Shown here: piece by piece, positions 30,001 to 33,000 of the stretch
Layout of the letters: each line of letters starts with the position of its first letter
How positions within the stretch are numbered: the first letter of the stretch is position 1
Virus record (IMG/VR): IMGVR_UViG_3300025530_000275
Coordinates: 126,101 to 190,100 of that record
Direction: 5' to 3' (one strand)
Source: a virus
DNA length: 64,000 nt
Position numbers: made by a program

Positions 30001-33000
30001 TGTTAAATTTGTAGAAAATGTTGTAAAGAAAAGATCTAGCGAAGATTATAAATTAAATAAAGAAGAAGAGGTAAATACTAAAATTATATAAAAAAAAAAT
30101 AAGGAAGAGTCTTATGCAGACTCTTCCTTACTTCTTAAATTCATTTGAATTTGATTTACAGCTTTTTTAATTTCTTCCTCATCAGGACCTACCAGAATAA
30201 TACCTACATCAATGTCTTTGTATATATACATATATTCTGCCAGGTCCTCATACAAACATTTCAAATTCCCCCGTTCGTTAGAACACTGCCAACAATCAAA
30301 AGAAATAATTACACCAACAGGGTTTTTTTTATTCTTTTTGTAAGTCATTCCAAAAATTGTATTTGCTCCAACAGTATGCTCATATAATTCAATGAAAGCA
30401 TACTCTGGATTCTTTTTATAAATGTCAATTGCAAGATCATGTTCGCCAATCAGATAGTCCAGATACATACATATCCTCCTTAAAAATATTAAAAAAATAA
30501 AGAGTGATGGTTATTTACCATCACTCTAATTATTTGATTTGGTACCGAGGACGGGAATCGAACCCGTACGGGTGTCACCACCCACAGGATTTTAAGTCCT
30601 GTGCGTCTGCCAGTTCCGCCACCCCGGCACGTAACCAATCCATGATAGTGGACCCGGAGGGACTCGAACCCCCGACCAACCGGTTATGAGCCGGCAGCTC
30701 TGACCATCTGAGCTACGGGTCCATAAATAAAATAAATTATATATATCTAATAGTTAATTAGATAGTATTTTTTAATTAGTTAACTTTTTATATTAAAAGA
30801 ATAAAGGAGAGAGCAGAACATAAAAAATCCGCTCTCCCCAAAATATGGTAAAATCACTCAGAAGCAGAAACTTCCTCGGTCTTTTCCATTGTCGCCGCAG
30901 TCTCTTCTTCGACCGAACCGGCTTGATCGAGATATTTGCAGGCCTCGGCGATTTCCGGCTCGATCGAGAAAATGTCATAATCAGTCACAACTTGCCGCAA
31001 AATGAACGGTTCAATATCGGCATCGTCGCGACGATACGCAATTTGCTCGAATACCACGAAAGATGCGTCACTGACATTGATGAACGTTGTTGCCTTGTTC
31101 ATAGCAACAACTGGATCTTGACCCATCCTCAATTGAGAGGATTCAGACTCGACCCACTCGCCGTCCGTGGCAAACCGGAAAATCGAGACTGTATTTTGAT
31201 AAACGTCGTTCCGACCTTGGTATTCACCATTCGGGTCCTTGTATTGAACCCGATGAATGCCATACCGCTCCAGGAACTCCTGGAATTTGACTGTATGGAA
31301 ATACGCATAGCGCGCTTTAGGTTTGTTCACCAAGAACACAAAGCCGTCAGCGAATTCGAACTGATAGTACCGTTCGTTCTGACGACGATTTTCCGGCATG
31401 ACAACCAAGTTGTCGTTCACGCCGCGCCAGATAAGCCATCCGTCAACCTTCAGCGGACTAGCCTTCGTGTATTCGAAAGAGTCCGTTTTGATTTCAACTT
31501 TAGTCGTTTGATTAGCAGCAGGCTTCTGCATCTTCTTCTTGAATTCCCGCAGTTGGTTGCGGAAATCCTTCCGCTCATACTTCTTCTTCTTGTCTCCGCT
31601 GGATTCAATCTTCACCACCATGGGCTTTTTCGAAGCGGCCTGAGTTTTAGTGATTTTCTTCATAGTGAACACTCCTTTAGAATTATTTTAGATGCACAAA
31701 CACTAATTTATTGTTTGCGCTCAATATAATAATATATAATTATATTTTCGTCGATCTACACCAAGGGCTTAGACTCTCAATGTGAAAAATCTTTGTATTA
31801 ATGGGAGTATATATACAATATAGTTATATGAGATATCAATATCAAATCCAGTTAAATAATTCTCCGATTTAAATGACTTTCCATCATCCGTCATTAGAGT
31901 ATAATACGAATCAGGGTTTAATTCTCTATAATATTGAAATTCTAAACTTCTCGATTTATAGAATTTAGAAAATTGTTTTAACTTAGATATTATTCTATCA
32001 TTCGATGATGTTTCTAAAAGATTAAATATATCCTTCAAGAATTTACACATATAGTCCTTATGAGATTCTAATTTCTCTTCCCGTATTCCTTTAACATCCA
32101 AAACTTTACCTCTATTTCTATAATAGAATTCAATATTTGAAAATCTATGGAATGAGGTGTATCTATTCTTCAAAACAAATTCAACATTCTTAAATTTAGT
32201 CTCTTCGCATGTTTTATTGACTAAAAATATGGCATCTTTCTTTATAGATAATATCTGGTGCTCCTTTATATTATTAGCCACAAAGAATTTTTTTCTCATT
32301 TTAGAAAATGATTCAGATAAATCTCTATTGAGAGTTTTATTATCTCTCATCATTTGACCTATTTGAATGGTTCTAGCATGTTTAGGCATTGCCTCTAAAT
32401 ACTCTATAGTTTGGCTATCCAATAATTCATAATACTTTATCAGATTTAATCCAGCATTCTTCATATCATACTCATAAATATTAGCATTAATAATATAATC
32501 AATATCTTGAGTCCAAAGATCTCTTTTATATAGAGTATAACCAATATCTTTATCTTTATCTATCAGACGCACTCTCAATTACACATCACCCACATATTTT
32601 CTTTTTTTGCTTAAAAAAATAAAGAGAGAAGGGATAACCCTTCTCTCTAATGAGAGCGCCGATGTAGCGTTATTTAGTTATCGGATTCGTCGTCAAGATC
32701 ATGGATGTCGTTATAGATTGACAAAACGAGATTGAACGCATCCTTCTTGCTCCAACGCTCCGACTTCTTCGAAATACCAAGAGTCTTTACATGGCGCTTA
32801 ATGAGCTTCTTGCCCTTCTTTGTTTGGGCAAATGAATCGATGGATTGGAGAACAGCTTTCTTGCTGATTTCATTCATCGGGTCTTCGGATTGATTGATCA
32901 GAAGAGCAATCCTGTCGATTGCAAACTTCCGGTCAGCAAGTTCCAGCTTCTCCAAGCCTTTGATATCGATTTGGCAGGTATCTTTCACGAAATCCCGCAT

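Follow-up and report, generated by a model that had tools for sequence, protein, structure and literature searches.

A putative minimal polymerase with the family B fold encoded by AR9-like jumbo phages

Why would a jumbo phage that possesses a large DNA polymerase of its own also carry a gene for a 269-amino acid (aa) protein in which segments resembling the motifs of right-hand polymerases appear in the canonical order? This question is raised by a 64,000-nucleotide stretch of virus DNA (hereinafter, the window) that comprises bases 126101-190100 of the 206,953-bp IMG/VR record IMGVR_UViG_3300025530_000275, which is rated complete by CheckV. The GC content of the window (~0.31-0.38) and the genes around the one in question, including pieces of a multisubunit RNA polymerase (RNAP), DnaB, a Dda-like helicase, topoisomerase II, UvsX, RNase H and virion proteins, show that the source is an AR9-like jumbo phage. 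The protein, which we refer to as the mini-polymerase, is predicted with high confidence to consist of the palm, short fingers and compact thumb of a family B polymerase (PolB) and nothing else. The answer that we favor, while granting it somewhat less than an even chance, is that the mini-polymerase is a catalytically active, proofreading-free enzyme that is accessory to the 1270-aa PolB of the same phage and is involved in short-patch synthesis.

The gene and the predicted structure of its product

An earlier note on this DNA, made from the sequence alone, pointed to the open reading frame (ORF) at 31769-32578 of the window (minus strand) and to the segments EYDMKNAG, RTIQIG and SIKKDAIF as likely counterparts of motif A, the fingers and motif C of right-hand polymerases. 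The ORF is real: it encodes 269 aa from a TTG start, with a Shine-Dalgarno-like GGGTGA site 7 nt 5' of this codon, and the three segments (residues 36-43, 69-74 and 111-118, respectively) follow each other in the proposed order and are conserved in an alignment of 135 family members with 30-78% identity, to which all conservation counts given below refer. An alternative start is the GTG two codons downstream, given that a near-identical database protein (P0001) is 267 aa long and that the Atlas record begins at residue 3.

The AlphaFold2 model of the mini-polymerase, built from the 135-sequence alignment, has a mean predicted local distance difference test (pLDDT) score of 94.8 and a predicted template modeling (pTM) score of 0.89. 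When this model was compared with the PDB using Foldseek, the best 50 matches consisted only of family B polymerases and herpesvirus UL8 (E-values down to 1.6e-5, probability 1.00). A Foldseek-independent structure search with VIA-align over 48,161 chains produced a compatible result, with PolB-fold chains occupying all of the first 19 rows; the scores were Z 11.1 for the Pol alpha catalytic domain (246 of 252 residues aligned), Z 10.9 for RB69 gp43 (243 residues aligned at 4.0 Å, chain 393-895), Z 10.4 for the herpes simplex virus (HSV) polymerase, Z 10.3 for HSV UL8 (9ut1_C) and Z 8.0 for phi29. In a search of BFVD, members of the same family came first, followed by UL8 homologs, which were the first named matches, and viral DNA polymerases. 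Kinship with reverse transcriptases or family A polymerases was considered and rejected, their Z values in VIA-align being only ~5; archaeo-eukaryotic primases, nucleotide cyclases and Pol beta-type enzymes were not seen among the VIA-align matches listed, an absence that is not proof.

The structural match extends over residues 18-269, that is, the whole protein. The chain starts about 20 residues ahead of motif A, and both the exonuclease and the N-terminal domain are missing. Hence the description of the protein in the earlier note as devoid of an exonuclease and of a large thumb is accurate with respect to the exonuclease but has to be amended with respect to the thumb: residues 167-269 (31772..32080, minus strand) are predicted to form a compact helical domain that aligns with PolB thumbs, is covered by the alignments with RB69 gp43 (243 residues) and Pol alpha (246 residues), and contains the conserved residues Y207, Y217, R218 and N252.

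The putative active site

Four residues, D38, G74, D115 and A116, are invariant in all 135 sequences, and two of these are the aspartates that one would look for in a palm domain. In the motif A region, E36-Y37-D38-M-K-N-A42-G43-L-N45 (32444..32473, minus strand), D38 closes palm strand 1 (residues 28-39 in the model) and is followed by a helix (42-49); because the structural alignments begin at model residue 18, which roughly corresponds to Pol alpha 841 and RB69 393, D38 falls in the position of the PolB motif A aspartate. Conservation in this region is high for E36 (134/135) and A42 (121/135), and position 43, five residues after D38, where the PolB signature DxxSLYPS has its steric-gate Tyr, is Gly in 114 sequences and Asn in 19. 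Being located two residues ahead of D38 in the same strand, E36 faces the same side and may supply a third carboxylate. Motif C, S111-I-K113-K114-D115-A116-I-F118 (32225..32248, minus strand), is a beta-hairpin (strands 109-113 and 116-120, turn 114-115) in which K113 is retained by 126 of the 135 sequences and the turn residue D115 matches the second, catalytic aspartate of the PolB signature YGDTDS.

Between these two motifs lies the predicted fingers helix K66-G74 (32357..32383, minus strand; helix 66-79), in which K66 (127/135), R69 (110/135) and the invariant G74 stand out; K66 and G74 are spaced as in PolB motif B (KxxxNSxYG; K-x7-G), and from this spacing we infer an equivalence with KVYANSEYG of the phage's own PolB. 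Downstream of motif C, K137-N-R-Y140 (32159..32170, minus strand; K137 in 123/135, Y140 in 129/135) is a putative counterpart of the PolB KKRY/KxY motif that contacts the primer terminus, and D161-V-K163-G164 (32087..32098, minus strand; K163 in 134/135, G164 in 131/135) a putative counterpart of D(V/I)KG at the PolB palm-thumb junction; the alignment with the Pol alpha palm stops at model residue 163. An hhalign comparison with the phage's PolB places K137-N-x-Y140 opposite KKRY and DVKG opposite ITDVKGFDF in collinear fashion, in an alignment that is itself non-significant (probability < 1%), so that the proposed correspondence draws on the order and spacing of the motifs and on secondary structure. 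Altogether, the notion of a right-hand polymerase, originally put forward on the strength of the motif order, is borne out by structure prediction and Foldseek, which yield a family B core with D38 closing strand 1 and D115 in the hairpin turn.

Distribution of the family

The mini-polymerase belongs to PHROG 21037, a family with no assigned function (4.7e-46; residues 14-264 against profile positions 3-255 of 257). In a tblastn search, homologs were found in 21 of 50,697 phage records, all annotated as hypothetical, and the cultured carriers are Bacillus phages AR9/PBS1 and their relatives, Staphylococcus jumbo phages (S6, MarsHill and others), Listeria phage LPJP1 and Yersinia phage phiR1-37; the homologs of AR9 and phiR1-37 are g239 and g276, respectively. 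A profile of the 135 members detects a single copy in the genome under study, in AR9 (3e-62) and in phiR1-37 (1e-53), and no homolog in phiKZ or 201phi2-1. Among metagenomic sequences, there are 958 clusters (50% identity) at E <= 0.001 and 726 at E <= 1e-10, typically on contigs of 200-330 kb, and nearly all of the 150 proteins listed are ~225-285 aa long, the rest being a few shorter fragments. Fused or longer "Rosetta stone" forms were sought among these homologs and none was found, which is weak evidence. The mini-polymerase family, made up of stand-alone proteins of ~250-280 aa, is a core gene of AR9/PBS1-type jumbo phages that is highly diverse in metagenomes and is annotated as hypothetical everywhere. 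It is not described in a survey of jumbo phages (PMC7824862), in a survey of PolB diversity (PMC7544198) or in the literature covered by our full-text searches; the former survey recognizes five polymerase types, none of which resembles the mini-polymerase (PMC7824862). If the structural assignment is correct, this would be an undescribed, very small type of polymerase that has the PolB fold and lacks several of the defining PolB sequence features.

Could this distribution reflect an adaptation to uracil-containing DNA? All cultured carriers belong to the AR9/PBS1/S6/phiR1-37/LPJP1 group, several members of which have deoxyuridine (dU) in their DNA (PMC12697855, PMC8150378), and the absence of homologs from phiKZ and 201phi2-1 fits the same pattern; under this scenario, the mini-polymerase, having no uracil-sensing N-terminal pocket, would incorporate dUTP or bypass template dU in phages such as PBS1/AR9, S6 and phiR1-37. 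We consider this scenario very unlikely. The distribution may merely track phylogeny, and bulk incorporation of dU would be performed more naturally by the large PolB. Furthermore, the link to dUTP that the earlier note brought up finds no support in the phage at hand, which encodes a ThyX domain (60.6 bits) within a ~405-aa ORF, longer than the usual ThyX (genome positions 94772-95989, minus strand, outside the window), and in which a search for a PBS1-type deoxycytidine (dC) deaminase and for ThyA detected neither. Given the ThyX domain and the lack of a detectable PBS1-type dC deaminase, the genome of this phage probably contains thymine rather than uracil.

The replicase and the primase of the same genome

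Is the mini-polymerase perhaps only a part of the replicase? In phiKZ-type phages, the polymerase is divided between an N-terminal and a C-terminal subunit (PMC13648687), and two polymerase genes are likewise found in AR9, so it is conceivable that a detached piece completes the catalytic center of such a split enzyme, as the earlier note allowed. In the present genome, however, the divergent PolB is encoded by a single 1270-aa ORF (genome positions 77476-81288, minus strand, outside the window) that is recognized by Pfam divDNApol (8.9e-34) and DNA_pol_B and by the PHROG profiles for each of the two parts of the split phiKZ/AR9 enzyme, and that contains motifs A, B and C of its own (DLDAGAMYPN, KVYANSEYG, VIDTDS) as well as KKRY. 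Since this PolB is complete, the mini-polymerase is not a fragment of the replicase; moreover, its predicted structure comprises palm, fingers and thumb in full, and no fused forms have come to light. The detached-piece scenario thus appears scarcely credible, and of the two options envisaged originally, a fragment acting with a partner or a separate compact nucleotidyltransferase, it is the latter that agrees with the gene content. The expectation of a split replicase, derived from phiKZ-like phages, does not apply here either; the single ORF is the arrangement of this genome, whereas phiKZ (DNAP-N, DNAP-C) and AR9 (g132, g152) have separate genes.

A second potential role to be considered is that of a primase. 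Group 1 jumbo phages and chimalliviruses have been described as having no primase (PMC7824862, PMC13648687, PMC13648698), yet AR9 has a gene annotated as primase, g225 (PMC5312081). A homolog of AR9 g225 is present in our genome at positions 65855-66838, with a CPYC...CFRASC zinc ribbon and the Toprim-like motifs EGxFD and YSDEG; it is DnaG-like, and a relative matches PHROG 19847, "DNA primase". With this DnaG-like primase encoded in the genome, the mini-polymerase is not the sole primase candidate, and its identification as the missing primase of the clade is ruled out.

Gene linkage and expression

The survey of gene neighborhoods suggested in the earlier note, which covered 80 IMG/VR loci with 8-kb flanks in which ORFs were called and clustered using BLASTP (counts are given over 81 or 80 loci), revealed extensive linkage. 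The gene upstream of the mini-polymerase is co-directional in 75/80 loci, with a median gap of ~11 nt, and an RNase HI gene is located upstream in the same direction, within 8 kb, in 47/81 loci, in five of them directly adjacent. In the window, the RNase HI gene (35805..36506, minus strand; phrog_531 RNase H, 2.5e-15) lies 3.2 kb upstream and is co-directional. The recurrent gene string includes RNase HI, followed by one or two variable genes, a 513-aa kinase-like protein, a 267-aa protein, sometimes a 169-aa protein, and the mini-polymerase. In one subclade (L032, L041, L065, L070, L077, L083), the order is DnaG-like primase, a small gene, RNase H and the mini-polymerase; in another subclade, which includes AR9 (g238-g239), guanylate kinase is immediately upstream. 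In L032, L065, L070, L078 and L083, no more than 13 nt separate the end of the RNase H gene from the start of the mini-polymerase gene.

With regard to expression, transcription of AR9 g239 starts from a primary site of its own, and the transcript level rises from 61 through 309 to 1533 fragments per kilobase per million (FPKM) at 5, 20 and 40 min (PMC5312081 Table S4); the FPKM values for AR9 RNase H at the same time points are 323, 725 and 1580. Thus, g239 is already expressed at 5 min, when virion genes are near zero, a pattern that resembles those of RNase H and of the replication genes classed as "continuously expressed". In phiR1-37, the neighbors of g276 are flagged as structural proteins and g276 itself is not.

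An active enzyme?

What, then, could the mini-polymerase do? The case for an active enzyme comes from the invariant acidic residues at both catalytic positions, together with the conserved basic and aromatic residues, which argue for catalysis over a scaffold function comparable to that of UL8. A short-patch role at primers or gaps is suggested by the lack of an exonuclease, the minimal, two-helix fingers, the coexistence with a replicase and a primase, and the linkage to RNase HI. Such an enzyme would perform two-metal nucleotidyl transfer with D38 of palm strand 1 and D115 of the hairpin turn as metal ligands, and E36 might take the place of the first aspartate of the canonical DTD, which is missing. 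K66 and R69 in the fingers would bind the triphosphate of the incoming nucleotide, K137/Y140 and K163 would keep the primer end in place, and the role of the thumb would be to grasp the duplex. The reaction could serve gap filling after the removal of primer RNA by RNase HI, that is, Okazaki-fragment maturation, or else primer extension or the repair of short gaps, and ribonucleotides might be tolerated or even used, considering that a steric-gate aromatic residue is not conserved.

A number of observations weigh against the proposed enzyme. The sequence is not recognizable as that of a polymerase: a Pfam scan of the mini-polymerase and 28 homologs yielded no match at E <= 1, the profiles PF00136, PF03175 and PF20286 are not matched by the mini-polymerase, a hidden Markov model (HMM) search of the PDB with the mini-polymerase found no polymerase, and hhalign comparisons with the phage's own 1270-aa PolB and with a 31-sequence divergent-PolB profile were not significant (probability < 1%). 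The predicted active site is atypical, with DTD, SLYPS and the N/S/Y residues of motif B all absent. Specifically, the DTD apomorphy is reduced to the single D115, with K113 at the position of the first aspartate; the SLYPS box with the steric-gate Tyr is replaced by the consensus D-[MI]-K-S-A-G-[FL]-[SN]; and the N, S and Y of motif B give way to T/N, I/V and I, respectively, such that only K66 and G74 are kept at the PolB spacing. The genomic context is similarly ambiguous. Because conservation is just as strong in a downstream block of functionally unrelated genes (for an RNAP beta' piece, a virion protein and a 218-aa protein), the synteny is partly historical and guilt by association is weak; furthermore, in the window, a terminator-like hairpin with an 11-bp stem and a T run (32623..32648, minus strand) separates the mini-polymerase gene from its upstream neighbor, the gene for the 267-aa protein.

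That the DTD, SLYPS and motif B signatures are missing would be accounted for if the mini-polymerase were a non-catalytic subunit of the replisome or of a helicase-primase, analogous to the PolB-derived herpesvirus UL8. The rank of UL8 in the VIA-align and BFVD searches and the primase gene that adjoins it at some loci are compatible with such a role. Inactivated PolBs such as UL8 have lost their catalytic residues, however, and it is precisely these positions that are preserved in the mini-polymerase, both aspartates without exception and K66, R69, K137, Y140 and K163 nearly so. In view of this pattern of conservation, we regard a UL8-like scaffold as distinctly unlikely.

The principal rival, in our ranking, is an enzyme that synthesizes RNA. 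Such a mini-PolB would use ribonucleoside triphosphates (rNTPs), either for de novo primer synthesis, which piPolB performs with dNTPs, or for the extension of primers made by DnaG, in a manner reminiscent of Pol alpha-primase. Several features of the mini-polymerase could be interpreted in this vein: the residue at +5 after the motif A aspartate is the above-mentioned Gly or Asn, with no conserved aromatic residue anywhere at +4 to +6; the six loci of the primase-containing subclade combine the DnaG-like primase and RNase HI in one string; and the Pol alpha catalytic core is the best structural match, albeit tied with RB69. Conversely, both this phage and AR9 encode a DnaG-type primase with a zinc ribbon and Toprim, so that none is missing; the steric-gate assignment comes from an ungapped motif alignment and secondary structure; and there is no sign whatsoever of de novo initiation. 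On balance, we consider this alternative unlikely. A bolder variant, to which we attach a similarly low probability, is that the mini-polymerase, at ~255 aa, is smaller than any other templated polymerase in the family B lineage; this minimal catalytic core, with a rearranged metal site consisting of E-x-D on strand 1 and the single hairpin aspartate and with no steric gate, would synthesize or extend RNA or mixed primers together with the DnaG-like primase and RNase HI, a phage equivalent of the hand-off from primase to Pol alpha.

Should the mini-polymerase prove active, whether in the short-patch synthesis that we favor or otherwise, it would show how small a working family B core can get, and an enzyme of ~30 kDa that lacks accessory domains and a steric gate would be relevant to polymerase evolution as well as to enzyme engineering. 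The replication apparatus of the AR9/PBS1-type jumbo phages would, in addition, be found to include a second polymerase.

Neighboring genes and other features of the window

The immediate upstream neighbor, the 267-aa protein u267 (32674..33477, minus strand), is encoded directly or nearly directly upstream of the mini-polymerase in 50/81 loci. It occupies the slot of the guanylate kinase of AR9-like loci and lacks a Walker A motif; its AlphaFold2 model is confident (pLDDT 94), the best Foldseek matches are thymidylate kinases at E ~0.2, and the VIA-align Z values are <= 6.2, none of which amounts to a convincing fold match. This protein may be a degenerate nucleoside monophosphate (NMP) kinase-like protein; as a clue to a partner of the mini-polymerase, it was set aside since the fold matches were unconvincing despite the confident model. 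The next gene, KIN513 (33571..35112, minus strand), which is present in 66/81 loci, encodes a 513-aa protein that matches phrog_4301 at 1.5e-9. Its N-terminal region is kinase-like (a weak match to a T7 gp0.7-type protein kinase PHROG), its C-terminus is acidic, and it contains a segment rich in Cys that resembles a zinc ribbon.

On the 3' side of the mini-polymerase gene, two long ORFs on opposite strands overlap almost completely, 30845-31729 (plus) and 30854-31672 (minus). The 272-aa minus-strand ORF is likely to be the real gene, because a co-directional homolog (cluster c29) follows the mini-polymerase in five related loci. Farther in the same direction are the genes for tRNA-Leu (TAA) and tRNA-Met (CAT), at 30540-30628 and 30648-30722 (minus strand); the tRNA-Leu region is ~91% identical to short stretches in records of Staphylococcus and Enterococcus phages. 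Elsewhere in the window, a 3078-aa ORF (38432-47668, minus strand) adjoins a virion structural gene.

Comparison with known systems

How does the mini-polymerase compare with characterized enzymes? Its predicted fold runs, as in bona fide PolBs such as RB69 gp43, the Pol alpha core, archaeal PolB and phi29 DNA polymerase, from palm strand 1 through the fingers helices, the palm helix and the beta-hairpin to further palm strands and a helical thumb, with one aspartate closing strand 1 and another in the hairpin turn. It also has K-x7-G, KxxY and KG segments in the PolB order, the latter two as putative counterparts of the PolB motifs. It differs from them in having ~255 aa, where the known PolBs, to our knowledge, have at least ~570, in having fingers of ~30 residues, no N-terminal domain and no 3'-5' exonuclease, in the substitution of K-K-D for DTD and of Gly/Asn for the steric-gate Tyr, and in the lack of any similarity at the level of sequence profiles. 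The divergent PolB of the phiKZ/AR9 type (PF20286, divDNApol) has the phage lineage and the family B fold in common with the mini-polymerase but is the product of a separate gene, ~79 kb away in this genome, retains DTDS, KKRY, MYP and NSEYG, and scores below 1% against it in hhalign.

Herpesvirus UL8 and the mini-polymerase are similar in that both have PolB-derived folds with no detectable sequence likeness to active PolBs and both are associated with a primase, in the case of the mini-polymerase through gene linkage at some loci. UL8, however, is a protein of ~750 aa that includes N-terminal and exonuclease-like domains and is regarded as catalytically dead, whereas the mini-polymerase keeps invariant acidic and conserved basic residues at the active-site positions. 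A precedent for the altered motif C is provided by the PolB_SITDG group, in which the first aspartate is likewise replaced by a non-acidic residue (Kazlauskas et al. 2020, PMC7544198); these proteins are cyanobacterial and algal and are PolBs by sequence, whereas the mini-polymerase family is phage-specific, far smaller and not recognizable by sequence. Finally, Pol beta and the Pol X of African swine fever virus (ASFV) have a nucleotidyltransferase fold that is unrelated to the RNA recognition motif (RRM)-like palm of the mini-polymerase, so the parallel is one of functional analogy only: in each case, a small, exonuclease-free polymerase would carry out short-patch synthesis beside a large replicase.

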